The notes beneath the pieces were generated by a model. The model searched no databases. It saw nothing but the letters and a program-made list of their open reading frames with translations, and was not told the DNA's origin. 64,000 nucleotides of DNA from an uncultured delta proteobacterium (GTDB lineage: Bacteria > Myxococcota > Myxococcia > Myxococcales > Myxococcaceae): assembly GCA_963771175.1 (NCBI GenBank), contig CAVYSY010000037.1:1-64000 (forward strand), read 5' to 3'. A program made the translations under genes and the position numbers. The number at the start of each line of letters is the position of its first letter. Positions within the stretch are counted from its first letter, which is position 1. Shown here piece by piece: positions 3,219 to 56,578 of this stretch.

Positions 3219-3842
3219 ATGAGTGATGACACGCAGGTGGGCAGCGGCTCCGTGTACGACACGGAGCAGGACCTGACTCAGCGATTGATCCTGGCGACGC
3301 CGGATCACACCACGCGCGGCATCCTATTCATGGCCACGCTGAGGACACTCCGGGAGCTCGGGGTGGACGAGGCGACGGTGCGGAGCTGCCTGGCTGCGTG
3401 CGGGGAATCGGAGTTCGTGGAGTTCTTCAACTACCCCACGAGCTCGCTCCTCCGGTTGCTCGGGGCCGCGGCGCGGGTGCTGAGCCCCAAGTACGGGAGC
3501 TACGAGGAGGCCATGCGACAGATCGGGTGGATGTCCGGGGACATCTACATGGCCTCCACCGTGGGTCGGTCGGCGCAACAGATGATGGGTGGAACGGACC
3601 CGATGCAGTGGGTGCGTGCCCTGCAGGCGCTCTACAAGGTCGTGATGGTCTACTCGGAGCCGTCGGTCATCTGGATGGGGCCGAAGCGAGGCATCCTCGC
3701 CGTCGAACGCACCTTCACGCCACTCGCGTACCACGAGGGAGGAGCGCTCGCGATCGCCAAGCGGCTCGGCGTGCAGAACGTGAAGGTGCGCGCGAGGAGT
3801 ACGGGGCAGCTCAGCGTCGAGCTGGACCTCTCCTGGGAGTGA
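3219..3842 (+). CDS. DUF2378/TIGR02265-like myxobacterial protein
   Basis: 'DLTQRLILATPDHTTRG', 'FFNYP', C-terminal 'LDLSWE'. Confidence 0.8.
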   Translation: MSDDTQVGSGSVYDTEQDLTQRLILATPDHTTRGILFMATLRTLRELGVDEATVRSCLAACGESEFVEFFNYPTSSLLRLLGAAARVLSPKYGSYEEAMRQIGWMSGDIYMASTVGRSAQQMMGGTDPMQWVRALQALYKVVMVYSEPSVIWMGPKRGILAVERTFTPLAYHEGGALAIAKRLGVQNVKVRARSTGQLSVELDLSWE

Positions 3843-3878: not shown

Positions 3879-6659
3879 CTACAGGCGCAGCCCCGCCGGG
3901 AGGGTGTCACCGAGGGCCCGCGCTTCGTCCGCGGCCTCCAGCGCCACCACCTCCGTCACCATCCGCACCCAGGTGTCGGCCGCCTTCGCCGCGCGCAGGG
4001 CCTGGGCCGTCTTCGCTCGCAGCTCGGGGCTGATGTCCCGCATCCGGTCCCCCGTGAGCCGCGCGAGCTGCGCCGCCGCGAACGGCGCCCCGTCGATGTG
4101 CTTGAGGTCCAGCTCCAGCAGCAGCGACAGCCAGGACTCCGCCACCTCCACGTCCACCACCTTGTGGCCGCTGCCGTACAGCGGCACCCGCGCGCCCAGC
4201 CGTCCCAGCGCCCACGACCACGGGCCGCCGCTCTTGCTCTCCGCCTTCAGCCGCGCCGCCACCCACTGGCCCAGCTCCGCCTTGTCGCTCGGGTCGATGT
4301 GCTCCAGCGAGGCCGCCGTGCGCACCATCTCGTCCAGGCCCTCGGGCTGGATGCCCTTGAGCTTGGTATGGGGCTGCGTCACGTCCGGCGGCACCTTCCT
4401 CGCCAGGTGCGGCTTCAGGTAGTCGTACAGCTTGCGCTGCTGCGCCTCGCTCAGCCCGCCCGCCATGCGCCGCCACATCACCCAGAACTCAATCCACACC
4501 GCCTTCTCGGTGTGGTGCTGCACGAGCTGGTCGAACAGCCCGAACGTCTGCTCCGCCCGCCAGTGGTCCAGCGGGTAGCCGAAGCCCGGGCGCAGCGTGA
4601 AGCCCGTCAGGCTGTAGAAGACGCGCTCGTGGTCCGCCGTGCGGCGCCGCTTGGAGGCCCCCGCGAACAGCGAGCTCCACAGCTCGCGCAGCACCGGCAC
4701 CCGCCATGTCTCCTTCGGGCCCAGCACCTTCTCCAGCGTGCGCGAGAGCTGCTTCACGTCCTTGGGGCCGATGGGCAGCGGCTTGTTGCCGTACACCCGC
4801 TCCACGTTCTCCTTCGCCTCGGCGAAGCGCGCGGGCATGGACTCGGTGACGGTCAGCTCGCGCTCGCCGCCCGTGCCCCGCAGCTCGAACTCCAGCCGCC
4901 AGCGCTCGTCCGCCACGTTCGACACGGCGAAGAGCTCCAGCGTGCCGATCTCCGTGAGCCCCGCCTGCAGGTGGACCGGTACCTCCGCTGTCTTCCCCGC
5001 GCCGCCCTTGAGGATGGTGTGGATGGGCGGCAGGGGCTTCAGGTCCTCCGAGAGCGGCACCACGTCGCCCGGCTTGTCGATGCGGTCGCTCGTGGTGGAG
5101 TACAGCGTGAACTGCACCGGCCGCCCCAGGGTGAGCGTGAAGGACCGCTCTCCGATGTCGACCTGGTTGCCCTCCTCGAAGCCTCGGGGGATGAGGCACA
5201 GCACCGGCTGCTCCGCGCTGTCCGCCGTGCGCTGCAGGGCCACGTAGTACGCGCGCGCCGCGCCACCACCGATGCGCAGGCCGTGCCCGCGCCGCACCAG
5301 CCCGTAGTAGGCCGCGCCGCGAGCCACCGCCAGCTCCAGCGACTCGTGCTTCAGCAGCCGGATGCGCGGGGCTCCCGGCCACCACGCGCTCACCGCGTCC
5401 ACCAGCCGCTCGGTGAGCTGCGGCGAGTTGAAGACGCCGCCATTGAGCAGGATGGCGTCGGGGCGGGGCAGGGCACCCTCCGCGGGAGCCGTCTCGCCCA
5501 GCGCCGCGAAGCCCGCCGCCGCGTGCTGCGCGAGGAAGGTCGCCAGGTGCCGGGTGATGGCCGCGTCCTGCGCGTACGGAAGACCGAGCTCCTGGAGCGC
5601 CATGCGCGACACGCGCCGGGGACGCTCCTGCGCGCCCGAGCGGGGGAAGAAGCCGTCCATGACGATGGCCTCCGCCTCCTCGCGCGTGAGGTCCGTGGAC
5701 AGCGAGCCTCCCAGCAGTCGGCTGCCCTCGGCCACCAGGGACACGCCGTAGCGCTCCGGCGGACTCGAGCCCAGCAGCGCCTCCTTGGCGGTGCGCGCCG
5801 CCTGGATGGCCTGCGTCCACTGGGTGGCGGACAGGCGCCGGTTGCCCTCCGGGAAGAGCTTCTCCTCCACGCGCCGGGCCAGCGCGGCATCCATGTTGTC
5901 GCCGCCGAGCATCAGGTGCTCGCCCACCGCGAGCCGCCGCAGCATGGGGCCCTCGGGGGACACGCCCGCGTGCACGAGGGTGAAGTCCGTGGTGCCGCCG
6001 CCTACGTCCACCACCAGCACCAGCCGCACGTTCTCCAGCGACTGCGCCAGGTCCTTCCGGTGGCGCGCGGTGAAGTCGTAGAAGGCCGCCTGCGGCTCCT
6101 CCAGGAGGGTGAACTTCTCCAGGCCCGCCTTGCGCGCGGCGCTCACCGTGAGGGCGCGTGCCGCCTCGTCGAAGGAGGCGGGCACGGTGATGACCACCTC
6201 CTGCTGGGCCAGCGGCGCCTCCGGGTGGGCGTGGTTCCACGCGCGAGCCATGTGCGAGAGGAGCAGGGCGCTCGCCTCCACCGGGGACAGCTTCGCCACG
6301 TCCGCCGGAGCACCCCACGGAAGGATGGGCGCCGAGCGGTCCACGCCCGGGTGGCACAGCCAGCTCTTCGCGGACGTCACCACCCGGCCCGGGCACCCGA
6401 GCGCCCTGCCAGCGGGCGAGCTCGCCCACCACCTGCGTGGCCGCCCTCGCCCCAGGGGAGGCGGAGCGACTCGGCCGCCAGTTCATGGCCGGCGGGCACG
6501 TAGACGCACGAGGGCAGCAGCGACCGCGGGCTCACCTCGCCCTGGCGCACCAGTTGGGGGACGGGGAAGTCCTCCACGGGTGCGGTGGGGCCCTTGCGTG
6601 GGGTCCACCGAGGCGACGGCGCAGTGGGTGGTTCCGAGGTCGATGCCGACGATGTGCAT
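3879..6659 (-). CDS. Hsp70-family protein with long C-terminal (DUF3731-like) domain; frameshifted in the 5' region
   Basis: MHIVGIDLGTTHC at 6659; VITVPASF, EEPQAA, DVGGGTTD, LGGDNMD, AVARGAA. Confidence 0.88.
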
Positions 6660-6696
6660 AGGCGTGCGTGCGGCCCTCCCTGGCCGCGGGCTCCTT

Positions 6697-8550
<1,854 letters not shown>

Positions 8551-8567
8551 ATGGGCTCAATCTGGTG

Positions 8568-9158
8568 TCAGGAGAGCTCGACTTCAGCGGGCGCGAGCAC
8601 GCGCGGGTCCAGCGCCGGGCTGGTGGTCGGGAATTTCACGGCCGTGGTCACCCAGCCGTGGTGCTTGAGCGCGCCGGTATAAGGAGGCTGGCCGGCCACG
8701 TTGCCGGTGAGGCGGATGCGCTGGGCATCGAAGCCCGGAGGCACGTTCACCGCGTCCCCCTCGGACTGGGGCAGCACCGGCTCCAGGGCGAGGTACTGGC
8801 GCACCACCTTGCGGCACCCCTCGTGGACGATGCGGGCGGCGGCGCCCACATCCGCGTCCGGGAAGGCGGCCACGTCCTCCTGGAGGAAGTCGATGAGGCG
8901 CCCCTCGCGCTGCAGCATGGAGAGCAACTGGAGGGCCGAGGCGTGCTCCCGCTCGGGAGGCAGCGCGGGGGCCGGCTTCTCTTCCTCCTTGGCCGGCAGC
9001 TCGGCGGGAGTGGGGCCAGCTGGCAGCTTGCCGGCATCATGCGCCTGGCGCACCGGCAGTACGGCCCGAGCGAACTCCGGGTAGAGCCAGATTCGCCAGA
9101 AGCAGACGAAGGCGAGCCAGAAACGGGCGAAGAACGAAAGCGAGGGCTGTTCGGTCAT
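8568..9158 (-). CDS. DUF2760 domain protein
   Basis: 'ALQLLSMLQREGRLIDFLQED', 'HHGW', 'APAEVEL'; directly upstream of the Hsp70 pair. Confidence 0.85.
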   Translation of the reverse strand: MTEQPSLSFFARFWLAFVCFWRIWLYPEFARAVLPVRQAHDAGKLPAGPTPAELPAKEEEKPAPALPPEREHASALQLLSMLQREGRLIDFLQEDVAAFPDADVGAAARIVHEGCRKVVRQYLALEPVLPQSEGDAVNVPPGFDAQRIRLTGNVAGQPPYTGALKHHGWVTTAVKFPTTSPALDPRVLAPAEVELS

Positions 9159-9513: not shown

Positions 9514-11847
9514 ATGTCTACCTCTCCCTCGAAGACGTTGAGCCCGGCCGAGCTTGCGAAGCTGGAGCACGCGTTCGCATCCGACCCTTCCTCTGATGCT
9601 TACCGGCCTCTGGCCGAGGCCTATCTGGCCGCTGGGCCGCTTCATGGAGGCCATGGTCGTCTGCAAGAAAGGGGTGAAGGCTCACCCTGATCGTGCGGAG
9701 CCTCGCCTCCTTCTCGCTCGCGTGTACTCGGAGCAGGGCAAGGACAAGAAGGCCCTGGAAGAGGTGCTCGGCGCCCTCCAGGCACAGCCGGACGACAAGT
9801 CCTCCCTGCGCATGGCCGGAGCCCTCCAGCTCAAGACCGGCGAGGCCGAGGTCGGCACGGCGAACCTCCTCAAGGCGTATGCGGCGGACCCCGCCGACGC
9901 CGAGACGCTGGCGGTGATGCAGCAGTACAAGGTGCAGCCGCCCCAGGCCGCCGCGCCCGCTCCTGCTCCCGTTCCCGTGGCCCCCGCCCCCGTGGCGGCT
10001 CCGGCTCCCGTGGCCGCCGCTCGCCCGGTGGCCGCTGCTCCGGCTCCGGTCGCCGCTCCCGTCACCGCCCGCAGGCCGGCGGACGGGGACGCCGAGGCCC
10101 CGCGTCCCAAGGCCCGCGCCGAGCAGCCCGCTCGCACCGCGGCCCGCCGCGCGCCAGTGGTCGTCGAGGACGACGACACGACGACGACGACGACGCGCCT
10201 CGCAAGCCGCGCAAGACCGGCTCCGGCGGCGGCAAGTTCGTCACGCTCGGCCTGCTCATCGCCGTGCCCCTCATCCTGGGCGGCTACTTCTTCCAGGGGC
10301 GCATGGCCGCGCAGCGCAACCGGGAGATCAAGAAGCAGCTCGACGTGGCCACCGAGCAGCTCAAGCACGACTCCTTCGACTCCTACAAGAAGGCCTGCGA
10401 CGCGGCCAAGCTGGCGATCGAGGTGGACCCCGACTCCACCGCCGCGCACGGCTACCTGGCCTACGCCTACGCCATCCGCTGGGGTGAGCACGGCGGTGGT
10501 GACGACGCCCGCAGCCAGGCCGAGGAGCATCTGGCCGCGGCCAAGAAGAGCGGGGAGATCAGCTCGCACCTGTACGCCGCCGAGGCCCTCGTCAAGACGT
10601 ACGGCGGCAAGGGCAAGGAGGCTCTCACCGAGCTCGAGGGGCGCGTGAAGTCCTTCGACGAGCAGGGCAAGCGCAGCTCGCTGCTGTACCTGACGCTCGG
10701 CCTCATCCAGATGAACGCGGGTGACCTGGATCGCGCCAAGGACAACCTGGAGAAGGCCCAGGGCCTGTCTCCGGACGACCCGCGCATCTACGCCGCGCTC
10801 GGCGCGGTGTACCGCCGGCTCGGCCAGGACACCATCGCCTGGAAGAACTACGACTTCGCGCTGCGCTACGAGAAGGACCACCCCGAGTCCCTGCTCGGCA
10901 AGTCCCTGCTGATGCTGGAGCAGGACGAGCCCAACTTCGCGATGGCGTCGCTGATGATCAAGAAGCTGCTGGAGGCCCAGCCGCCTCCGTCGCCGCGCCA
11001 GCTCGCGGCCGCCTACCTGGCGCGCTCGCTGCTCATCTCGCGCGTGTCCGCGGGCCTGGAGAAGTTCAAGCCCGAGGAGCAGGCGAAGCTCGCCGAGGTC
11101 ACCGGCGTGCCCACCGACAAGGAGAAGGCGCGTCAGGAGATGCACAAGGCCGAGGAGACGGGCTTCACCCTGGACAAGCAGAGCCCCGAGCTGCTGCTCA
11201 TCAAGGGCCGCCGGCTGCTGTCCGAGAACCAGTTCGATCAGGCCGCCGAGGAGATCCGCAAGGCCATCAAGATGGATGGCACGCGCGCCCAGTTCTACGT
11301 CGAGCTGGCCAAGGCCCTCATGGGCAAGCCGGGTGGCGAGAAGGAGGCCTCCGAGGCGCTCGTCACCGCCATCAAGACGATGGGCGACAGCCCCAAGCTG
11401 CTCACCATGCTGGGCAACGCCTACCGCCGGCAGAACAAGCTGGATGAGGCGCTCTCCACGTACGAGCGCTCGGTGAAGGACGCCAACGCGAAGAACCCCG
11501 AGGCCCGCCTGGCCATCGGCACCATCTATCGCGAGCGCTCGATGTGGGGGAAGGCGCAGGAGTCCCTGGAGAAGGCGGCCACCGAGTTCATCGGCCAGCC
11601 GGACCGGGCGGCCACCACGCTGGTCGAGCTGGCGCGCGTCTTCGAGGGCAAGGGCGACGCCGCCAAGGCCGATGAGACCTATCAGAAGGCCTTGAACGCG
11701 GACGAGAGCTTCTCGCCGGCCTACTACTACTACGCGGCGTTCCTCTCGAAGGACAAGAAGCAGGCCGCCAAGGCCAAGGCGCTGGCGCAGGAGTACCTCA
11801 AGCGCGAGCCCAAGGGCGAGTTCGTGGCCCAGGCCCAGGCGCTGTGA
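9514..11847 (+). CDS. Large tetratricopeptide-repeat membrane protein (frameshifted)
   Basis: N-terminal TPRs, Ala/Pro linker, TM segment, C-terminal TPRs; frameshifts near 9630 and 10180. Confidence 0.8.
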
Positions 11848-36935: not shown

Positions 36936-37922
36936 GTGCGCACCCTGCCCGCCTGCCTGCTCCTCGTCCTCGTACTCACCGCTTCGGCCGTCCTGGCCGC
37001 CCCGCCCTCCGCCGAGAAGCGCCTGTCGCGCCGCGCGGAGACGGAGCAGCTCGTCAGTGAGCTGCTGGAGGGGCGACTGCCGGTGCCCACCGCCACCTCG
37101 CGCCTGCGCATCCTGCGCGAGACGCCCTACGCGGCGAGTCTCCTCATCCGGGCCATCCCCGACGTAGTGGAGCCGCGGCGGCTGCGGGACGTGACGGCCG
37201 TGCTGGGCGGGCTGGAGGTGCGCTCGGCCGAGTCCACCCTGGTGGGGCTGGCCGGGCACCAGGACGGGGCGGTGCGCATGAACGCCGTCGAGGGCCTGGG
37301 CCGGCTGCACAGCCGGCGAGTGGACGTGCTGCTGCCGCTGCTGGAGGACAAGTCGCTCGGGGTTCGCCGCGAGGTGGCTCGCGCCCTGGGCGCCACGCGT
37401 GAGCCCCGGGTGGGCAAGGCGCTCCTCACCGCGGCGCGCACCGAGGCCGATCCGCAGACGCGCGTCCTGCTGCTGGAGGCGGTGGGGGCCGCGGGTGACA
37501 AGAAGCAGGCGCCGGGCCTCAAGGCCTTCCTCGACGACAGCTCCGAGAGCACCCGCTTCTCCGCCGCGCGCGGGCTGTGCCTGCTGGGCGCCCCCGAGGG
37601 CTTCGCCTTCGCGCGCAAGCTGCTGGCCTCGGAGGACAAGCACGTGCGCCGCCAGGGCCTGGCCCTCTACGAGGGACTGCCCGTGAAGCTGTCGCAGACC
37701 GCGCTCCGCCCGCTGCTCGAGGACAAGGATCGCACGCTCGCGGCCGGCGCGGCCCGCATCCTCCACCAGGGGGGCGACAAGACGATGCTGGGGTGGTTGG
37801 TGCTCGCCTCGTGGAAGGCCAGTGGCGAGGAGAAGCTCGCCTATGAGAAGGAGCTGGAGACGCTCCACCTCGCGGACGACGAGCGCAAGGCCATCCTCCG
37901 CAAGGCGGGGATGGTGAAATGA
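36936..37922 (+). CDS. Exported HEAT-repeat protein
   Basis: Signal peptide; 'LLEDKSLGVRREVARALG'-type repeats. Confidence 0.82.
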   Translation: MRTLPACLLLVLVLTASAVLAAPPSAEKRLSRRAETEQLVSELLEGRLPVPTATSRLRILRETPYAASLLIRAIPDVVEPRRLRDVTAVLGGLEVRSAESTLVGLAGHQDGAVRMNAVEGLGRLHSRRVDVLLPLLEDKSLGVRREVARALGATREPRVGKALLTAARTEADPQTRVLLLEAVGAAGDKKQAPGLKAFLDDSSESTRFSAARGLCLLGAPEGFAFARKLLASEDKHVRRQGLALYEGLPVKLSQTALRPLLEDKDRTLAAGAARILHQGGDKTMLGWLVLASWKASGEEKLAYEKELETLHLADDERKAILRKAGMVK

Positions 37923-38833
37923 AGGCGCTCGCGCTGCTCTCGGCGCTGCTCGCCCACGCGCCCTCCACCGCGACTCCCCCCGCGGCGGCCACTCCGGCCC
38001 TGCGGACGGGGAAGCCGCCGCCGGTGGTGTGGGCCTCGCTCAGCCCCCAGGAGCGCGCCGCCTTCATCACCCAGGAGGCCACGCTTCCCCTGCGGGAGCG
38101 GCTGCTGCGCGTGAGCGAGCGCTTCCTGGGCACGCCCTACGTCCACTCGCCGCTGGGGGAGGGGAGCGGGGTGGATCCGGATCCCACCTTCCGGCTGGAC
38201 GCGGTGGACTGCCTCACCTTCGTGGAGCAGGCGATGGCGATGAGCCTGGCCAACGCCGAGTCCCAGGTGCCGGAGTTGCTCGAGCGCCTGCGCTACGCGG
38301 GCTCCCCCACCTACGAGGCTCGCAACCACCTGATGGAGGCCCAGTGGCTGCCCAACAACCAGCGCAAGGGCTTCCTGGTGGATGTGACGCGGCGCTACGG
38401 CGGTGAGGACACGGTGCGGGTGCAGAAGACGCTCACCGCCCTCACCTGGACGTCGCGCTCCTCGCTGGCACTGGGACTGCCCAAGACGCATCAGCCACGG
38501 GGCACCTACAGCCTGAACATGATTCCGCTGGAGCGGGTGATGGCGCACGCGCGCCAGATGCCCTCGGGCACCATCCTCATCGTCCTGCGGGAGGACCTGC
38601 CGCTGAAGGCCACGCGGGTGACGCACCTGGGCTTCGTGGTGCAGAAGGGTCGGCGCACCTGGCTGCGGCACGCGCGGCGCGGCGTGGATGGCAACGGCCG
38701 GGTGGTGGACGAGGACCTGGAGACATTCCTCGCGCGCAACGCGAAGTACGACAAGTGGAAGGTCTCCGGCGTGAGCCTCTACGAGCCCCACCTCCCCGAC
38801 GCGGGCGGTGGCGAGCTCGTGCGCTCTCCGTGA
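37919..38833 (+). CDS. DUF1460 / NlpC-P60-fold amidase-like protein
   Basis: FLGTPY; 'DCLTFVE'; RNH; 'VTHLG'; LRHA. Confidence 0.88.
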   Translation: MKALALLSALLAHAPSTATPPAAATPALRTGKPPPVVWASLSPQERAAFITQEATLPLRERLLRVSERFLGTPYVHSPLGEGSGVDPDPTFRLDAVDCLTFVEQAMAMSLANAESQVPELLERLRYAGSPTYEARNHLMEAQWLPNNQRKGFLVDVTRRYGGEDTVRVQKTLTALTWTSRSSLALGLPKTHQPRGTYSLNMIPLERVMAHARQMPSGTILIVLREDLPLKATRVTHLGFVVQKGRRTWLRHARRGVDGNGRVVDEDLETFLARNAKYDKWKVSGVSLYEPHLPDAGGGELVRSP

Positions 38834-38845
38834 CGGCCTCCCTTC

Positions 38846-38912
38846 CACTTCTGGACGTCCAGAAGTGATGGGGTGAACCCACCTACATGTCACTTGGAGT
38901 CGACTCCGAGTG
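38846..38912. repeat. Double-palindrome module, left copy
   Basis: CACTTCTGGACGTCCAGAAGTG, 23-nt spacer, CACTTGGAGTCGACTCCGAGTG. Confidence 0.9.
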
Positions 38913-38931
38913 ACCTCTGGGAGGTGCGGTC

Positions 38932-39387
38932 ATGTCTCGGCTGCAGGTGCTGCCGCTGTTGCTCTTGTTGCTCTCGGGGTGCGCCGTCGTGGAGGGGAGC
39001 CTCCGACCGGAACACTTCCAGTTCGTGGATGTGGTCTCCAAGAAAGGGAAGGGTCCGGGAGGTTGGCGGGCCGCATGTGTTCACGTGGGTATCAAGAAAA
39101 GGGTCACGGGAGACATGTTCCTCTGCAAATTTGGCGTGGAGGTGCCCATTGAGAACGAAGAGCAAGGATTCATCCCGGTCGAACGGGCGCGGAGCGTTGC
39201 CGCGAAGTGTGCCAACCTGGCTGCGAGGAACGTTCTCAGCCTCACCACCAAGGAAACCCCTCTGGGCATTGCGTGCGAGGTCTTCAGGGTCGAGTACGAA
39301 TTGATTCTGAATAATACCATCAGGGGTGCACACGTTCCGAAAATGTGTCACGCACGGACCAAACCTGTCGTCGTCATTCCGCCCTGA
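38932..39387 (+). CDS. Cys-rich hypothetical lipoprotein
   Basis: GGAGG SD; LLSGC lipobox; lower GC than flanks. Confidence 0.75.
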   Translation: MSRLQVLPLLLLLLSGCAVVEGSLRPEHFQFVDVVSKKGKGPGGWRAACVHVGIKKRVTGDMFLCKFGVEVPIENEEQGFIPVERARSVAAKCANLAARNVLSLTTKETPLGIACEVFRVEYELILNNTIRGAHVPKMCHARTKPVVVIPP

Positions 39388-39391
39388 CGCC

Positions 39392-39955
39392 ATGACCCTC
39401 TCATCTGAGCAGTTGATTTCGATCGCCCGGAATTATTGGTCCACGACCGACGAGTACTATCTCCAGGGTGAGGCCAGTCCCGAAAATAAGAGACTTGGTG
39501 CGTTGTGGGAGCAGGAGATCAAGAAACTGGATCAATGGTGGGCGTTCCTGGAGGAACTGGAAGGAGCGTTGCCGGAATTCACTATCGGCGACGCTACTAC
39601 GACATCCGATGCGAACTTCCGTTGTGTCGCCTATTGGGGGGAGAAGCCCCTGCGCGACTTCGCTGTTGTCGGATGCGTCAGCATCATCGCGCCCGTATTC
39701 ATCATTTACGGTCTGGAGTTTGGCGTGGCCAAAGGGCGGCGAACCGTCAGAAGGGTCTGCTTCGAGCCTCTTCCGGCTGAAATGCAGAAGCCTGCCAGGA
39801 TCATGGCCGACAAGATTGAAAAGACATTCAAGGTCAGCGCGCTTCCTCGTGAGCTCGCTGAAACCCCCGTTCCGCTCTTCGTGGAGCGGAAAGAGCCTCC
39901 ACACACCACTCTCTTCCATGCGCTCTTCACGCATATGCCCGAGAGCGTGCCCTGA
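39392..39955 (+). CDS. Hypothetical cytoplasmic protein (possible partner/immunity protein)
   Basis: Starts 4 nt after the lipoprotein stop; acidic and aromatic-rich; lower GC. Confidence 0.7.
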   Translation: MTLSSEQLISIARNYWSTTDEYYLQGEASPENKRLGALWEQEIKKLDQWWAFLEELEGALPEFTIGDATTTSDANFRCVAYWGEKPLRDFAVVGCVSIIAPVFIIYGLEFGVAKGRRTVRRVCFEPLPAEMQKPARIMADKIEKTFKVSALPRELAETPVPLFVERKEPPHTTLFHALFTHMPESVP

Positions 39956-40057
39956 TTCAGCGATGCACACCGTGGCGAGGCAGCGGAAGTATCGAGCTGA
40001 ACCGGAGCCCGACTGCCCCGGTTCAACCCGGTGTGTGGTCATCGGGCGGCGGTGCGT

Positions 40058-40546
40058 TCAGCGGAAGCCGTCGACGATGTAGACGCCCGCGATGGGGAAT
40101 TCGAGCTCCGCGGTTCCCGGAGCGGGTCCCTGCTTCTTCTTCAACTGGCCATGACCCAGGCGGGCCACGGCGCAGATGGGGATTGGATCTCCATCCGGAG
40201 GACGCGCCTCGTAGTACCGGATGACCACGTTCGGGCCACCGGTCCAGATCTGCCCGTACATCCGGGTCAACGGCTCCAGGTACCCGAGGTCTCGTTCCAG
40301 ATAGCTCTCGACGGGGCCATCGTTGACGATGATCGGGCTCTGGCTGCTCTGGTTGGCGTCGATCACCACCGTGGAGGTATCACCCGGCCGGAGTCGCAGG
40401 ATTCTCATCGCCTCCAAGGCCTTCTCCGGGCACTTCTCCGGTCCTGGACCTCCGTCTGGACGCAAGGCAACGCCAGATGCCGTGCAGGCCAAGCCCAGGC
40501 AGGAGACGACAAGGGCTGAAAGGAAGGGTGCTTTCATCGGGAGCAT
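40058..40546 (-). CDS. Small exported/lipoprotein resembling the C-terminal domain of myxobacterial Ser/Thr kinases; DUF2381-associated
   Basis: LGLAC; 'CPEKA..AM..L', 'LEPLTRMYGQIWT', 'IPICAV'. Confidence 0.6.
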   Translation of the reverse strand: MLPMKAPFLSALVVSCLGLACTASGVALRPDGGPGPEKCPEKALEAMRILRLRPGDTSTVVIDANQSSQSPIIVNDGPVESYLERDLGYLEPLTRMYGQIWTGGPNVVIRYYEARPPDGDPIPICAVARLGHGQLKKKQGPAPGTAELEFPIAGVYIVDGFR

Positions 40547-40618
40547 CGAAGGGCTCTTGACTTTTCCTGTCCGTGTTCTCCAATCCGCGAATGCGGATCC
40601 CACCACGTCGCGGCCAGG

Positions 40619-41582
40619 TCAGTGCAGCAGATTGGCGGGGAGCAGTTCGACGTAGGCTTGCCGGAGCCCTCCATTCCTGAAGAGCTCCAGGACGAGCTTG
40701 TCTTCCGTCCCTGGCCGGGTCGAACGAGGCGAGATCGGTGACGATGGCAATGCGGCCGGCCTTACCTGGGGGGATCGAGGACGGTGTTGTGCGAAGCGCG
40801 AACGGCTTGGGCTGCCAGGTGGTGAATGTCGAGAGTCGTGCCTCCTGCAACTCCCAAGGCCTCAGGGGGTCCTTGTTCTTCACGTTGAAGACGACGGCGG
40901 CCTTCTTCCTCGCCACTTTGCTCTGGTTCTTTCGGGGAACGAAAATGAGGATTTCGACGTCGACTCCATCGCCGCGCAACACCCACTTCTCGCCCTCCCG
41001 AAACGGGGTCATCTCGATCTGCTCGTTGAGCAGTAGCGCGGCGAGGGCGTGATCCACCGAGGTGCCCTCCTCGCGCTGGCGTCGGTTCTCGTCTCGGAGC
41101 ACGTCGTTCTCCTTGCGCGCGTCCTCCAGTGCCGCGCGAACCGCCTCGGGGGACTCTGGCTTGGGGAAGACGGTGACCTGTCCGTCCACGCGCGTCTCGC
41201 TGGTCTTGACGGTGAAGGGCAGCGAGGTGCCGTCCATGAGCGTCACCAGCAGCATGAGGCGGTCGTCCGGGTCCAGATTCTTGAGCGGAACGATGACCAC
41301 GGATCGGCCGCCCACCAGCAGCGGTTCGAAGCGACCTTCCCACCCCAGCAGCTTCGTCTTGCTCGGGTCGCAGTCACTCTCGAAGCGCAGCGTGGTCACG
41401 ATGCCAGCGGAGACGAAGAGCTCCGGCACCTCGTGCTGGGGAGCCGTCGAGAAGTAGAGCGCCCTCCGCATGGGCGGCTCCGCGAAATGGGGCTGCCGCT
41501 CGTGGGCCGCCACGCTCGTGGCCACCAGCAGAAGGGCGACCAGCGCCGCCTTCCGTATCCAGCCGATGGGAAAGGTCATCAT
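40619..41582 (-). CDS. DUF2381 family protein (frameshift near 40705)
   Basis: Signal peptide; 'TTLRFE..CDP..TKLLGWEGRFEP', 'LLVTL.DGT.LPF', 'GRIAIVTD'; ends 'LVLELFR.GGLRQAYV.L'. Confidence 0.8.
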
Positions 41583-41693
41583 CGGCGGGCGAACCTATCC
41601 GGTCACGGAACTGGCCGCCAGCATCAGGCGCTGTCGCGGCCTGGCGCCAGAGGGCAGGGGCCGGGCCGCTCTGCCGTGAAATCCCGGGCCCTC

Positions 41694-41828
41694 GCTTCCG
41701 GACGTCCAGAAGCCAAAGAGGCCCGGTCCTCCGCTCGCTTACAGACGTCTGTAAGTGATGTGGGATAGGGGAGTACATGTCGCTCGTAGTCGACTACGAG
41801 TGCGCCACTTCTGGACGTCCAGAAGTGA
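41694..41828. repeat. Palindrome cluster including the right double-palindrome module
   Basis: Palindromes at 41694-41713, 41736-41757, 41781-41802 and 41806-41827. Confidence 0.9.
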
Positions 41829-41844
41829 GGTGTGCTGGCCCGTA

Positions 41845-42289
41845 TCAGAGCGCGCTGTGCGGGGGGGCGGTGACTTCCGTCTCGCGCTCCTCCTCCTCGG
41901 CGGCCGCGGCGGCCTCGGTGGCCGTGGACTCCAGGGTGCTCTCCTCTCGCGACAGGAGCTGGATGGCACGCTCCTGGTACTCCTCGGGCACCATGATCTC
42001 CCACCAGGGCTCCAGCGCCCCCGTGGTCAGTACATCCACCGAGCCCGTGCGCCGGGGCCGCGGAGAAGACGGGGATGTGCTCCTTTTCCAACAGCGCGAC
42101 GAAGTCATCCGCGGTCAGCGGATCGTCCGCCGTGGCCGCCCGGACGAACTTCTGCGTGTCATGCTCCCTCGACAGGGCGACGTGGCGCTCGCGCATCGTC
42201 TCCGCGTCCACCAGGGTGCTGCCCGGACAATCGGCACACTCCTTCACGTCGTCCTGGTACTCGGAACCGCACTGCATGCAGTACTTCAT
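41845..42289 (-). CDS. Zinc-ribbon plus DUF2007-like protein (frameshift near 42062)
   Basis: MKYCMQC...CADC; continues 'WWEIMVPEE...A..LL' in a second frame. Confidence 0.7.
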
Positions 42290-42349
42290 CGTGCCCTCCC
42301 TCCAGGAACATCACCCTGGCAACCAGGCTCGAAGTTAGCACGCACCGCC

Positions 42350-42706
42350 TCAGTGCCTGGCTGCTTCCCCGAGACTTCCGACGGCGGCTGACAACCGTTC
42401 GACATCAATGGGCTTGCGCAGCACCATGTCGCAGCAGCCGGCGTCCACGTCGGTGTAGCCGGACACGAGGATGACCCCGGCCTTGGGCTGGCGGGTCTTC
42501 ACCTCCTGGGCGAGCACGGTGCCACACATGCCCGGGAGGGACTCGTCGGTGATGACCACGTCGGGGTGGTCATCCTCGAACGCCCTCAACCCCGCGGGAC
42601 CGTCCGGCGCCGTGATGACGTCGAAGTCCACCTCGAGAATCTCCGCGAGGAGTTCCCGGCTGTCGCCGTCATCCTCGACCAGCAACACCTTGATTCGCTC
42701 TCCCAT
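42350..42706 (-). CDS. Single-domain response regulator
   Basis: LLVEDD, VITDESLPG, VSG, LRKP. Confidence 0.92.
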   Translation of the reverse strand: MGERIKVLLVEDDGDSRELLAEILEVDFDVITAPDGPAGLRAFEDDHPDVVITDESLPGMCGTVLAQEVKTRQPKAGVILVSGYTDVDAGCCDMVLRKPIDVERLSAAVGSLGEAARH

Positions 42707-51482: not shown

Positions 51483-51603
51483 TTTTTAAGGGCTTGTCTA
51501 TTGCCTCATGGGCCACATGATTCCCACGGCGTAGAGTGTCCCTCGCCGTAGGCTGGCCAATTCGTCCTGTCCCTTCGGATGTGGTAGATCCACCACCTTG
51601 ACG

Positions 51604-52847
51604 ATGGAACACGGCGAACATACTGATTTTCCAAGGTTCTACCGAGTCAGCCCTGCGGATCGGAAGCCGCTCATCGACTTCATGATCGAGGGTCTTGAGG
51701 CTGGCGGCTGCCGAATCATTCATCGGCCGCGACCGGACCGGGCTCCATTCGTCATCACGTTCGAAACGCCACTGGGCGAGCGCGTTGGAATCGTCGCGTA
51801 CGCATTTCTCGCCAACAACGAAAAAATCAAGAATAGACCGTCCGACGAGCACCGCTTTCAGGTCAAATACGGAGGCGATCTGTCTGGATTGCATGGCGTA
51901 TGGCAGGACCCGTACGGTCTCTATACGACCCTTTTTCTTGGCATCAATCCTGACTCAGGCTTCTTCGTGGCGGCCGACCCCACGCTGCACCATCCTACCC
52001 GGTTCTCTGTTTCGGTGGAGTTCAAGGACGAGCATGCCGCGAGTATCGAGGAGAAAGGGTGGTTTGCCTGGGAGCGAGAGCGGCGTGGAGGTCACCCGAT
52101 CCGAAACAGAAGCGGACTTCGCGGGCGAGCGGTGGCGACAATGACCCGCTCTTCGAAGTGCTGGTCGGAGGGCGCCGCGAGCATTTCCTCCGGCTCATCC
52201 GGTTCGAGCGAGAGGCTTTTGGGGAAGCACCTGGCGAGCGTCAATACGTTGCAGACCATCTGGCCGATGGGAGCTTGGCGACCATCACGCCGGGGTTCTT
52301 GGAGGCCCCTCTCCCATCGCGAGAGCGGCTTCACTCGCTCGCACGGGAGTTTCAGTTGCCAGAGTCCCGGGTTCTCGACCTCATCGCTGAGCGCCGAATG
52401 CTTAAGGTCGCGGTCCGGGGGTCGGTGGCAGAGCAGCATCTGATCGAGACTCTTGGTGGCTTGCCCGGTGTCGAACGGTGCGCGCGCGTGCGTGACGAAA
52501 ATGGTCCCGATGTAGAGGTTGTGTTTGAGGGAAAGCGCCTTCTCGTCGAATGTAAGAATAGCTCTCGTAATCGCACTGCCGATGGTCTCGCGAAAATCGA
52601 TTTCCAACGAACGCGCGCCGCAAAGGGCAACCCGTGTTCGCGCTATTACAGCCCGACCGACTTCGATCTCGTCGCTGCGTGTATCCATGCTCTTACGGAG
52701 AAATGGGAGTTTTGCTACGCCCCGACACGCGCTCTTTCGCCACATCGCATCTGCGAGGGCAAGCTCGATAACAATGTGAAGCTAGATTCCAGGTGGATGT
52801 CCGACCCACGACAAGCTCTTCGGGAGGCGGCTCGGTGCACGGGTTGA
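51604..52847 (+). CDS. Putative restriction endonuclease with C-terminal PD-(D/E)xK domain (frameshift near 52100-52140)
   Basis: 'GPDVEV..EGKRLLVECKN'; directly upstream of a C5 methyltransferase; lower GC. Confidence 0.65.
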
Positions 52848-52877
52848 TGTCAGCCTCTTGGTGTACAACCGGCATTC

Positions 52878-54472
52878 ATGTCGACTCTAAAAGTCATCAG
52901 TCTGTTTTCTGGCGCTGGTGGTCTCGACTACGGGTTTGAGGCTGCTGGGTTCCACACCGCCGTCACTCTTGAATTCGACCGCTACTGCTGTGAGACCCTT
53001 CGGCGGAACCGGCCGTGGCCTGTCATCGAACGCAGCATCTTCGATGTGCCCACAGATGAGTTGCTGTCGACGGCAGGTCTTAAGATTGGCGAGGCTGCGG
53101 TTCTGATTGGTGGGCCGCCCTGCCAACCGTTCTCGAAGTCCGGATATTGGAAGAGCGGTGATTCGAAGCGCCTTGATGACCCACGCGCTGACACGCTCAG
53201 TGCCTATGTTCGGGTTCTAGAGGAGGCACTGCCAGGTGTTTCTTCTCGAGAACGTTGGCGGTATGGCGTTCTCGGAGAAGGACGAAGGGCTGCAGATGCT
53301 GCTCGATCGCATTGCGCGCATCAATCGCCGAGCGAAGACTCACTATCGGCCCGTTTTCAAGCTACTGAACGCTGCGGATTACGGCGTGCCACAACTCCGG
53401 GAGCGGTTTTTCATCATCGGCGTTCGTGATGGAACACCGTTCCGTTTTCCCACACCGACGCATTTCGATCCGGCCGAGTCGAGCGACCTCCTGATGGGCA
53501 GTGCGTTCGTGCTCATACCGCACGGCGTGGGATGCCTTGGGCGACTTGCCAGACGACGGAGGGGGAGAAGACGTGGCGATGCGCGGAAAGTGGGCAGAGT
53601 TGCTTCCGTCCATTCCCGAAGGTCAGAACTACCTCTGGCACACGGAGCGTGGCGGCGGCCTCCCATTGTTCGGATGGCGCCGCCGCTATTGGAACTTCTT
53701 GCTGAAGTTGGCAAAGAATCAGCCGTCGTGGACGGTGCAGGCTCAGCCTGGGCCCTCAGTAGGCCCATTCCATTGGAAAAACCGCCGCCTGAGCATCCGC
53801 GAACTCTGCCGCATTCAGACCTTCCCGGGTGACGTGCAGATAGTCGGTGACCGGATCGCTGGGCAGCGGCAGGTTGGCAATGCTGTGCCCTCTCTTCTCG
53901 CGGAAGTGCTCGCGCGCGCGCTTCGCGAGCAGGTTTTTGGTGGGCGCGTCAAGTCAGTGCATCCGAGCTTGATGCCGCCAGTGCGGTCACCCGTTCCGGC
54001 GCCAGAGCCTATGCACTCTGTTCCCAGGAAGTACCGCTCGCTCATTGGCGCTCACGAACCGCACCCCGGGACGGGGATGGGTTACGGCGCGCTCGCTAGG
54101 AAAGCGGCCGCCGAGTACGAGTCCGCAGCAAGCCCAGTTCGTACGGCGGTGACGATGGCTTCGACGGCAGGTCCTCGGGTCCCTTTTGATGTCGGTCTCC
54201 CAGAAACGCAGCACTCTCCAGCCAAGCTCCGACAGCTTGCGCTCATTGCTGCGGTCGCGCTCAAAGTTCGCTTTCACCTTGGATACCCAGTAGCTCGCAT
54301 TGTGTCCGCGCGCGAGCTTTCGAAGGCGCTCTTCGAGATTTCGTCCGTGCCAGAAATCCCCATCGACGAACACGGCCAAGCGAGCGCGTCGGAAGACGAT
54401 GTCCGGACGCCCCGGAAGGTCTCCCGCGTCGATGCGGAAACGCAGGCCCGCAGCATGAAGCGCTCGGCGTAG
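52878..54472 (+). CDS. dcm: DNA (cytosine-5)-methyltransferase, frameshifted; true 3' end uncertain
   Basis: FSGAGG, GGPPCQPFS, ENV, PQLRER, RELCRIQTFP, QVGNAVP across three frames. Confidence 0.92.
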
Positions 54473-54568
54473 ATGCAGTTCGGGTCGGGTGTTTCGTTTC
54501 TTGCTTGATTGATGGGCACGTAGGCTTGAGAGCCGACTGGCTGGCTTCAGCCCATCAAAGCGCGGCAT
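54082..54568 (-). CDS. vsr: Very short patch repair endonuclease (frameshift near 54176)
   Basis: TRPE, LPGRPDIVF, FVDGDFWHG, YW..K...N.ERD, GWRVLRFWE. Confidence 0.93.
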
Positions 54569-54844
54569 GCGAATCCTCCCCGAGGGTTTCCTTTTCGTGC
54601 TGGACGATCGTGCAACTCTGGGCCAACGCGGTCACGCGGTGGTCATCACGCTAGCCGTAATCTCGTCCAGCACTACGCCGGGGCGGTCAGTGGTGATCCT
54701 GGCTACTCCTCAATCAAGCCAGTAGCATGAACCGGTGCTTCAAATCAGTCGGACGCATTGGTTGGGATCGCATTAGAGGTGATCCATCCAGCAATCATGA
54801 GGAGTTACGACCTGCTCATCCAGTCGAAGTGGCGCTCAGGGTCC

Positions 54845-56578
54845 TCACTTCGAGACGTGTGGAAGTGGCAGCGCCTCCAGGACACTGAATCCACCTGCGG
54901 CGTCCAGTTCTTTGCCTGTGAGATGACATGAGCGCTCGCGGGGCAGGGACAGGGTGAAGCAGGCGCCCTGGCCCGGCTCGCCGCCCACGTCCAGCTTGCC
55001 CCCGTGCTCCTGGAGGATGCGCGCGGCGATGGCCAGTCCCAGGCCCGTGCCGCCGTCCTTGGTGGTGAAGTAGGGCTCGAAGATGCGGGCGCGGTGCTCG
55101 GGGGGAATCCCCGGGCCGCTGTCCTGCACCTCCACCACCGCCTCCCGCTCGCTGCCGTGCACGCGCACGTGCAGCGCCCCGCCGCCCTTCGTCATCGCCT
55201 CCTCGGCGTTCTTCACCAGGTTGACGAGCACCTGCGTGAGCTGGTCCCGGTCCACCTTCGCCACCACTCCCGGCTGCACCTCCGAGTGGATGCTGATGCC
55301 CGGCGGCGGTGAGGCGTAGAGCGACAGCACGTTCTGCGCGAGCTCGCCCAGGTCCACCGGCTCCAGTTGCGGCTTGGGCAGGCGTGCGAAGCGGCTGAAC
55401 TCGTCGACAATCCGCTTCAGCCGGTCCACCTCCTCCAGGATGACGCCCGCGCTCTCGCGGAACAGGGCGGGGAAGCGCGCGTCCTGCGCGTCCTGCACCG
55501 CCATCAGCGTCTCCAGCGACATCCGGATGGGCGTCAGCGGGTTCTTGATTTCGTGCGCCAGCCGCCTCGCTACCTCCTGCCACGCGGCCACGCGCTCGCT
55601 GGCCACCAGCCGCTCGGTGGTGGAGCGCAGCTCCGTCGTCATGTGGTTGAACGTCTTCACCAGCTCGCCCACCTCGCCCGTGGCCTTCACCTGCACCTGC
55701 ACGTCCAGCGCGCCCTCGCCCACGCGCCTCGCACCCGAGGTGAGTGCCTCCACCGGCTGGGTGATGCGTCGGGCCATCAGCATTCCCACCAGCACCGCGA
55801 AACTCAGGCCCAGTCCCGCCAGCAGCAGGAAGGAGCGCAACACCCCCAGCGTGGCCTCTCGCTCGGCCGCGCGGCTGAAGAGGAGCCGCACCGTGGCGGC
55901 CTCGCCCAGCGGCAGCACGCGCGACACCGTGGGCGGTGTCACGCTACCGGCCCGGGCCACCACCGTGTCCCCGGACAGCAGCGACACCTCCGCTCCCGTG
56001 AGCCGCGACAGGTGCGACGCCAGCCCCTGGTCCAGCAGCACTCCTCCCACCGCCCACAGCCTCGTGTCCCCGTAGTCCACCGGCCTCGCCGTGACGAGCG
56101 CGGGCACCTCGCGCAGGCCCTCGTCCCCGCGCACCGACACCTTCACCGGCACTGGCTTGGGCGACTTCTCCCGGGTGACTCCGAAGAGCTCCGGGTCCGG
56201 ATCCCCCCGGCGCGCGGGCAGGTGCCCGGAGGACAGCGTGGTGCCCTTCCGGTCGAAGAGCGCCAGCACCGTGAGGCCCCGGCTCTTCATCAGCGCCTGG
56301 GCGGTGTCCGCGCGGATGGCGCGAGCGGGAGACTCTCGGGCCTCGCGCGCCAGGTCCTCCATCGCGGGGCTCTCCACCAGCTCCTCCACCGCCCGGCGCG
56401 CGTTGGCGGCGGCGCGCTCGAGGGCCTCCTGCGCGGAGGCGGTGGCCCCGTCCATGCGCGCATCCAGCCCCCGCGAGAGCGTGGCGCGCAGTCGCGTCAG
56501 CGTGAAGGGCACCATCACCGCCAGCGGCACCAGGGCCAGCAGGGCGAAGGCGAGCGCCAGCCGCGTCCTCAACCTCAT
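54845..56578 (-). CDS. NtrY-like HAMP sensor histidine kinase
   Basis: 'AAWQEVARRLAHEIKNPLTPI', NLVKNA, DSGPG, GTGLGL. Confidence 0.93.
   Translation of the reverse strand: MRLRTRLALAFALLALVPLAVMVPFTLTRLRATLSRGLDARMDGATASAQEALERAAANARRAVEELVESPAMEDLAREARESPARAIRADTAQALMKSRGLTVLALFDRKGTTLSSGHLPARRGDPDPELFGVTREKSPKPVPVKVSVRGDEGLREVPALVTARPVDYGDTRLWAVGGVLLDQGLASHLSRLTGAEVSLLSGDTVVARAGSVTPPTVSRVLPLGEAATVRLLFSRAAEREATLGVLRSFLLLAGLGLSFAVLVGMLMARRITQPVEALTSGARRVGEGALDVQVQVKATGEVGELVKTFNHMTTELRSTTERLVASERVAAWQEVARRLAHEIKNPLTPIRMSLETLMAVQDAQDARFPALFRESAGVILEEVDRLKRIVDEFSRFARLPKPQLEPVDLGELAQNVLSLYASPPPGISIHSEVQPGVVAKVDRDQLTQVLVNLVKNAEEAMTKGGGALHVRVHGSEREAVVEVQDSGPGIPPEHRARIFEPYFTTKDGGTGLGLAIAARILQEHGGKLDVGGEPGQGACFTLSLPRERSCHLTGKELDAAGGFSVLEALPLPHVSK

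Follow-up and report, generated by a model that had tools for sequence, protein, structure and literature searches.

Genomic context and anatomy of the palindromes

The window analyzed here is a stretch of 64,000 nucleotides (nt) from an uncultured delta proteobacterium (assembly GCA_963771175.1, contig CAVYSY010000037.1). Its source is an Archangium chromosome; the closest matches of its AmiA-like protein are Archangium proteins, with 83-93% identity. Between two convergent genes, encoding the AmiA-like protein and a small zinc-ribbon protein, lies a block of ∼2.9 kb with accessory genes, both ends of which carry modules of paired 22-bp palindromes. The gene order is HEAT-repeat, AmiA-like, left module, LipC, ORF187, LipE, DUF2381, right array, zinc-ribbon, receiver-only response regulator, and HPF (Table 1). 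The remaining window is core chromosome, including dnaG, tuf, and genes for a sigma factor and a class A penicillin-binding protein.

Table 1. Features of the AmiA-like/zinc-ribbon junction and the related unit elsewhere in the window
Feature	Position	Strand	Remarks
AmiA-like / DUF1460 amidase-like gene, 304 aa, left flank	37919-38833	+	Pfam PF07313, E 1.1e-27
P1a, left copy, CACTTCTGGACGTCCAGAAGTG	38846-38867	.	Perfect 22-bp palindrome, centre GACGTC
Left-module spacer, 23 nt	38868-38890	+	Asymmetric; small hairpin predicted
P2a, CACTTGGAGTCGACTCCGAGTG	38891-38912	.	22-bp palindrome, centre GTCGAC, one T-G mismatch
LipC, predicted lipoprotein, 151 aa, LSGC lipobox	38932-39387	+	No known family; GC3 0.72; window only among loci compared
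ORF187, 187 aa	39392-39955	+	No known family; window only among loci compared; lowest-GC part of the block
LipE, predicted lipoprotein, 159 aa	40058-40537	-	Common to L004 and L006; remnant in L002
DUF2381 / TIGR02268 paralogous-family gene	40621-41582	-	Pfam PF09544, E 3.1e-62, profile positions 1-268 of 288
Degenerate P1, CGCTTCCGGACGTCCAGAAGCC	41693-41714	.	C-A and C-C mismatches
P1b	41736-41757	.	22-bp palindrome, centre GACGTC, inner arms ACA/TGT, one G-T mismatch
Right-module spacer, 23 nt	41758-41780	+	19/23 identical to spacer of L008 empty-site module
P2b	41781-41802	.	22-bp palindrome, centre GTCGAC, G-T mismatch
P1a, right copy	41806-41827	.	Matches left copy over 24 bp
Small zinc-ribbon gene, right flank	41845-42289	-	Weak Pfam Zn_Ribbon_1 and NCBIfam NF049953; frame shift near 42050
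Solitary degenerate P1-like palindrome	54846-54867	.	2 mismatches; covariance model 11.9 bits, E 0.26

The initial annotation of this DNA had described, at both ends of the block, a palindrome centred on GACGTC (P1) and a palindrome centred on GTCGAC (P2) separated by 23 nt, and every coordinate and sequence that it gave matched. The residual mismatches are G-T, as it had said, in P2a, P1b, and P2b, and the further degenerate copy that it placed near 41694 was located one position upstream of that. The 24-bp exact direct repeat that it had noted (38845-38868 = 41805-41828), borne out by a repeat search, lies at the outer edges of the block. The stop codon of the AmiA-like gene is 12 nt before the left P1a, and that of the zinc-ribbon gene 17 nt past the right P1a. 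Because the spacer is asymmetric, the module has a direction. All units at the locus are extragenic, placed either between two stop codons or in the gap from a stop codon to the following start. Searching the window for CRCTT-N3-GACGTC-N3-AAGYG with up to two mismatches returned five matches versus 0.07 expected, a number that was reached by none of 100 shuffles. The fifth match is the degenerate unit at 54846-54867, absent from the initial annotation. The GTCGAC-type pattern has two exact matches, which are P2a and P2b themselves. As assessed by a general palindrome scan of the window, CACT...AGTG-type palindromes are confined to these clusters.

Covariation, spacing, and predicted folding

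In an alignment of 10 modules from nine genomes, 91.8% of the cells pair and both sides have changed in 11 of the 22 pairs. None of 500 shuffles reached the observed value on any of five measures, and partners slid by 1-3 columns pair at just 25-40%. The outer CACT/AGTG and the centre (GWCGWC) are constant, and the inner arms vary from module to module (TCTG, TCCG, GGTA, TACA, TCGA, CGTA, and TGGA). The P1 and P2 centres themselves differ by a compensated A/T swap (GACGTC to GTCGAC). These findings support the view, already put forward in the initial annotation, that the structure is maintained, palindromy being kept up through compensatory changes. Start-to-start spacing of the palindromes is exactly 45 bp in seven of the 10 modules and 46 bp in one, with spacer sequences that differ.

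Perfect palindromes, with no bulge, make up nine of the 28 well-formed units. By hand count, the mismatches in these 28 units are 13 G-T, 7 A-C, and 14 other, with no significant strand bias, and the CGCT...AGTG position accounts for seven of the 13 G-T mismatches. The raw script count was 21 G-T, 15 A-C, and 30 other over 32 22-mers, from which three mis-registered units and one very degenerate unit were dropped.

Compared with shuffles, the predicted RNA and DNA folds have much higher stability, with hairpins on both strands (z-scores -4.7 to -8.5) and predicted stems of 9-11 bp for the 22-bp units. The modules of two relatives, L008 and L009, each of which consists of two like palindromes, are predicted to fold as one long hairpin resembling a REPIN, i.e. 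a hairpin-forming doublet of repetitive extragenic palindromes (REP). The window modules, in which P1 differs from P2, do not fold in this way. No Rfam family matched positions 38000-42600 at E values up to 1.

Modules with and without a cassette in relatives

The relatives comprise 74 loci retrieved with the AmiA-like protein, all of them from Myxococcaceae in the wide sense, with ±10-kb flanks (1.18 Mb). The AmiA-like gene is syntenic in all 74 loci, and the zinc-ribbon gene lies downstream in 61. Adjacency of the two genes in 57 of the 61 loci having both makes the "empty" arrangement the rule. Three of the four non-adjacent loci (L002, L004, and L006) carry cassettes. The fourth (L033, Corallococcus coralloides) carries an IS4/IS5-family element at 10960-11830 (DUF4096 plus DDE_Tnp_1, with inverted ends), so that the gap takes insertions even without palindromes.

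Modules are found in 10 of the 13 loci of the Archangium clade (the window, L002, and L004-L011). They are absent in L003 (A. minus), L015, the three Cystobacter loci, and all other genera among the loci compared. In many of the loci without the element, the two stop codons are just tens of bases apart, and in two Cystobacter fuscus loci (L012 10870-10900 and L052 10875-10915) the gap contains 2-3 tandem GGGTTCACGCC copies and no palindromes. A covariance model built on the 10 modules gave significant matches at this junction only, in the window and nine of the 74 loci; the relatives' flanks are one orthologous 20-kb region sampled repeatedly, which is little informative on the rest of the genome.

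Five of the 10 loci with modules have no cassette. The gap reads P2-spacer-P2 in L005, P1-spacer-P1 plus a degenerate P1 in L008, P2-spacer-P2 plus a degenerate P1 in L009, P2 plus a degenerate P1 in L010, and a single P1 in L011. These are the empty sites that had been predicted, in which the DUF1460 gene stands beside the zinc-ribbon gene with one module or palindrome in between. Conversely, the cassette locus L004 has a module on one side only, with none on the left, and across the 10 Archangium loci unit number and type vary, with 1 to 4 units per side. The modules are thus resident at the junction regardless of the cassette, and hence are not cassette ends as such.

L001, a metagenome contig with 94% identity and thus the closest relative, stops 15 nt past the AmiA stop codon (3435-3450), approximately where the first palindrome would start, as would agree with a repeat having broken the assembly. 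In L007, more than 4.5 kb of other genes (4425-8996) follow the AmiA-like gene before the contig end. They encode a 567-aa protein with a weak match to DUF2380 lipoproteins, a SUKH-1 (SMI1/KNR4) immunity-type protein, and a collagen-repeat protein, with a palindrome module mid-island at 7145-7229. This island may be a polymorphic toxin-immunity locus.

Composition and age of the accessory block

That the enclosed block is accessory, as the initial annotation held, is supported by its low GC content (53-66% versus ∼70% in the flanks), its low GC content at third codon positions (GC3, 0.69-0.77 versus 0.84-0.98), and its patchy occurrence among relatives; by composition it is foreign. LipC, ORF187, and LipE have no match in Pfam or NCBIfam, and PADLOC recognized none of the four cassette proteins. 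LipE resembles several clusters of ∼160-aa proteins found only in Myxococcota, which automatic annotation calls "serine/threonine protein kinase" in spite of the lack of a kinase domain, apparently a misannotation that has been propagated.

A frame shift near 40720 makes the DUF2381 gene either a pseudogene or the site of an indel error. Frame shifts also interrupt the zinc-ribbon gene (near 42050) and a C5 methylase gene further along the window (52878-54472). Since the zinc-ribbon gene is a core gene, indel errors of the assembly are as likely as true pseudogenes. The zinc-ribbon gene is broken by a shift in frame rather than by an in-frame TGA. The N-terminus of its product resembles, weakly (27 bits, cut-off 130), NF049953, "zinc ribbon-containing (seleno)protein DG."

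Positions 40054-41605, which comprise LipE, the DUF2381 gene, and 23 nt upstream, are homologous to stretches in L004 (80% identity) and L006 (77%), and L002 retains two remnants of the same stretch. Between genomes, the LipE-DUF2381 pair is 77-80% identical versus 82-87% for the flanks, lower in every pair. The cassette core is thus more diverged than its surroundings and shows no sign of recent spread. The block is composite, i.e. an old LipE-DUF2381 pair joined to a LipC-ORF187 pair of lower GC content that is found only in the window. Across the clade, the LipE-DUF2381 pair occurs in three subclades (the window; L004, with a remnant in L002; and L006). In a left-flank tree of the window and 18 of the 74 loci, built by a quick method, filled and empty loci are intermixed among the 13 rows of the Archangium clade, a pattern that needs about five losses or four to five gains. 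The divergence figures favour an old resident that has probably been lost repeatedly over repeated gains.

Signs of exchange between units

The outermost P1 copies are identical within a genome and differ between genomes, with inner arms TCTG in the window and TCCG in L002, which fits recombination between the two ends. The degenerate P1 at 41693-41714 has the L002 variant as its left arm and the window variant as its right arm, i.e. it is a half-changed intermediate between the two. The 22-mer of P2b recurs unchanged at position 11017 of L002, and a form that starts with CACT (CGCT in the window), one base different, is found at L002 10972 and twice in L009.

L005 and L008, which are sisters (support of 96 in the Shimodaira-Hasegawa-like approximate likelihood ratio test), are both empty and have different spacer types: that of L008 is close to the right spacer of the window, and that of L005 groups with the left spacer of L006 and with L009 (15/23). 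This fits independent deletions from an ancestor that had two or more modules. The empty L009 is collinear with its sister L006 on the AmiA side, and on the other side with the L006 unit nearest the zinc-ribbon gene, the switch in collinearity falling within a repeated module. The crossover could not be pinned to one palindrome, since the L009 spacer resembles L006-left (16 of 23) and the last L006-right sub-unit (17 of 23) to about the same degree.

Gene order has also changed. A conserved two-gene unit (L002 11413-14035 and L004 11112-13684; 78% nucleotide identity), which encodes proteins of ∼640 and ∼220 aa without a Pfam match, stands right of the LipE-DUF2381 remnant in L002 and left of LipE-DUF2381 in L004. 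The L004 junction keeps just GAGCGC, a short tail that follows a palindrome in L002, and the change of order fits unequal exchange between modules. Shared units are co-oriented in all four genomes.

In L006, the cassette stretch ends in a 3' stub of the zinc-ribbon gene joined to a decayed 3' copy of that genome's own AmiA-like gene, beyond which lie an SH3 gene and the zinc-ribbon gene in intact form. The duplicate (L006 13283-14066) corresponds to aa 223-304 of the AmiA-like protein, with an internal deletion of ∼32 nt, and the 80-aa SH3_3 gene after it is unique to L006. This duplicated fragment points to general rather than site-specific recombination. A similar decayed AmiA 3' remnant upstream of the right array of the window was considered and rejected, its score being equalled in 135 of 500 shuffles. 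Taken together, these alleles indicate exchange among the units, whatever the machinery.

Searches for machinery and further copies

The initial annotation had named genes for REP-associated tyrosine transposases (RAYT), HUH enzymes, or tyrosine recombinases as ones to look for beside the modules; none was found among the window open reading frames (ORFs) scanned or among 13 cassette ORFs of relatives. Likewise, Pfam detected no transposase, integrase, or Y1/HUH domain in 41 further window ORFs, nor in seven ORFs around 52-58 kb. The right-hand array had no match among PLSDB plasmids and INPHARED phages in distant mode. Other copies were also sought as spurious ORFs by comparing the translated right array (47 aa) with predicted proteins, which gave no candidate and is not evidence of absence. 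Literature searches returned no description of REP-like palindromes in myxobacteria (Myxococcus, Archangium), and a single mention of DUF2381, in a preprint on another subject.

The solitary P1-like unit at 54846-54867 extends into the final codons of a histidine-kinase ORF. It lies on the right border of another low-GC island (51598-54900, 55-65% GC), the left border of which is without a palindrome. A full double module at this position was considered and rejected. Only its first palindrome is convincing, and global alignments were 2-3 standard deviations above shuffles, resting on that unit. The island contains restriction-modification genes: those for an MTaX1 methylase-associated protein and the C5 cytosine methylase mentioned above (three overlapping ORFs), an unassigned ORF (52059-52847), and a Vsr mismatch endonuclease gene (53987-54568, - strand).

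Comparison with known systems

In anatomy and behaviour, the closest match is an array of REP, or of bacterial interspersed mosaic elements (BIME), with REPIN-like doublets. Like REP/BIME, which typically measure about 20-40 nt, the units are short palindromes in extragenic positions between convergent genes, conserved in head and centre, and they form arrays with a unit number that varies between strains, at sites of rearrangement. They also occur as doublets with a short spacer, which in L008 and L009, though not in the window, are predicted to fold as one long hairpin in the manner of REPIN. In Proteobacteria, REP/BIME arrays and REPIN doublets are maintained by the transposase-like RAYT proteins, the genes of which are themselves flanked by REPs, and a genome holds tens to hundreds of REP/BIME copies at dispersed sites. 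The present units differ in that they are perfect or near-perfect 22-bp palindromes without a bulge, so that their orientation is undefined, in having two centre types and a spacer of strictly 23 nt, and in their host, a member of Myxococcota, a phylum for which the literature searches gave no such repeats. The array would thus work like a REP/BIME array, membership being unproven.

Other systems resemble it less. With integron attC sites it shares structured, covarying palindromes, imperfect to perfect, at cassette boundaries and a cassette content and order that vary at one chromosomal site. Integron cassettes have one attC each, are co-oriented, and mostly consist of single promoterless ORFs. 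Here, units flank both sides and occur without a cassette, and the four genes are in two orientations and include a two-gene operon. In addition, there is no intI, attI, or Pc in the window, no integrase domain in the cassettes of relatives within 10 kb, and the palindromes have neither extrahelical bases nor a GTTRRRY-type core, as judged by eye against the attC features and the R-box consensus. The suggestion that these are attC-like sites thus did not hold for the features tested. Like the pdif modules of Acinetobacter plasmids, the block is an accessory module bracketed by short dyads with a 6-bp centre, with any recombinase encoded elsewhere. Here the dyads are 22 bp long, symmetric, and chromosomal, at a single locus, whereas pdif sites are 28 bp long with distinct XerC and XerD arms. 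Finally, a miniature inverted-repeat transposable element is brought to mind by the 67-bp non-coding unit, the ends of which are mutually inverted where both palindromes are alike. There is, however, no visible target-site duplication, and palindromes also occur singly and in threes.

Interpretation

Our preferred reading, held with moderate confidence, is that a REP/BIME-like palindrome array occupies the junction and that its repeated units promote deletion, duplication, and reordering of the genes enclosed. The array would be housed in the short gap between the convergent AmiA-like and zinc-ribbon genes of Archangium, with a basic module of palindrome, 23-nt asymmetric spacer, and palindrome, and usually one more P1 beside the zinc-ribbon stop codon. 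Its palindromy could be kept up by hairpin or cruciform formation, or by copying within the family. The accessory genes of the window, of which LipC-ORF187 would be the younger pair, would sit inside the array, and would therefore have units on both sides as direct repeats. Recombination between units would then remove, duplicate, or reorder genes and leave one module in the "empty" genomes, by a route that could be homologous exchange, hairpin-helped replication slippage, or an enzyme. On this account, the hairpins presumably form in vivo, the units would be the crossover points, and the family may be dispersed elsewhere in the genome.

Several observations weigh against this reading. No RAYT gene was seen among the ORFs scanned in the window. 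Outside the locus, there is one degenerate unit in ∼61 kb of window and none in the ±10-kb flanks of relatives, which amount to one orthologous region resampled. The 24/24 identity of the P1a copies beside a half-changed P1 needs recent end-to-end exchange or site-specific recombination. The fixed 45-bp spacing despite differing spacers hints at a protein-sized constraint. The central hexamer is palindromic and compensated, neither of which is needed by a hairpin loop, and classical REPs are imperfect palindromes. Lastly, no U-tract follows the hairpins, and a terminator scan of 38500-42300 gave no site at the modules.

Some of these points lend themselves to the model of the initial annotation, in which a site-specific recombinase, its gene lying elsewhere, would use the palindromes as att-like core sites to insert and excise the block as one cassette or a stack of them. 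It would account for the exact repeat at the outer boundaries so close to both stop codons, for the same architecture in L002 with that genome's own P1 variant at both ends, for the one module kept in empty sites, and for the gene order permuted between L002 and L004. The fixed spacing would also follow, and the two centre types could be incompatible crossover cores. We nevertheless consider it unlikely. No recombinase was found among the ORFs scanned in the window or in the cassettes, the tested attC features are absent, the cassette core exceeds its flanks in age and divergence, L004 is without a left module, and the AmiA 3' duplicate and zinc-ribbon stub of L006 are typical of general or illegitimate recombination. 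Moreover, symmetric cores should invert as often as they delete, whereas shared units have kept one orientation throughout. The cassette-mobilisation idea therefore stands in part: the empty sites and the identity of the two ends within a genome speak for it, and modules that reside without a cassette, the composite block, the one-sided array of L004, and the L006 duplicate speak against it.

The predicted hairpins could instead be a locus-specific cis element, with tandem hairpins acting as a bidirectional terminator or 3'-end stabilizer under purifying selection and cassette edges merely reflecting insertion into the gap. The position of units at the 3' ends of both genes fits this, as do the stable hairpins predicted on both strands, the significant model matches at this locus only, and the P2 22-mer, which differs by no more than a single base between the window, L002, and L009, where flanks are 82-87% identical. 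We regard it as decidedly unlikely. The modules have neither a U-tract nor a terminator call, and L003, L015, Cystobacter, and other genera are without the element; most Myxococcaceae do without a hairpin here, so that no terminator is needed at the junction. Hairpin function also leaves the palindromic loop bases unexplained, the mismatches have no clear strand bias (13 G-T versus 7 A-C), and a related unit exists at 54846. None of the attC features tested, no intrinsic terminator, and no Rfam family is recognized in the modules.

A bolder idea, and a highly doubtful one, is that the junction is a chromosomal cassette dock, with 22-bp cores of incompatible GACGTC and GTCGAC centres 45 bp apart, at which an unlinked enzyme inserts, excises, and reorders cassettes. 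If true, repeated dock cycles would keep the two end cores of the island identical within each genome, and the dock would be a new kind of integron-like system in Myxococcota. Operator-like double-stranded sites, in which a homodimeric protein would bind each 22-bp dyad and a pair of dyads spaced 45 bp would make up a module, are very improbable: perfect dyad symmetry that includes the centre, conserved outer CACT/AGTG and central GWCGWC with varying inner positions, and the fixed spacing would suit them, but the inner arms are compensated, which independent half-sites would not enforce unless contacted, the 3' ends of convergent genes are an unusual place for operators, and no DNA-binding regulator gene adjoins, the neighbouring response regulator having a receiver domain only.

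Extragenic palindrome families are well studied in Proteobacteria, and myxobacteria have large genomes with an abundance of paralogous and strain-specific genes. Unusual features of the present family are its strict 22-23-22 geometry and its centre hexamer, in which the change is compensated. With its filled, reshuffled, and empty alleles around one repeat array, the locus is a natural series that could be used to test how such palindromes drive accessory genes to be gained and lost, and whether an enzyme takes part.

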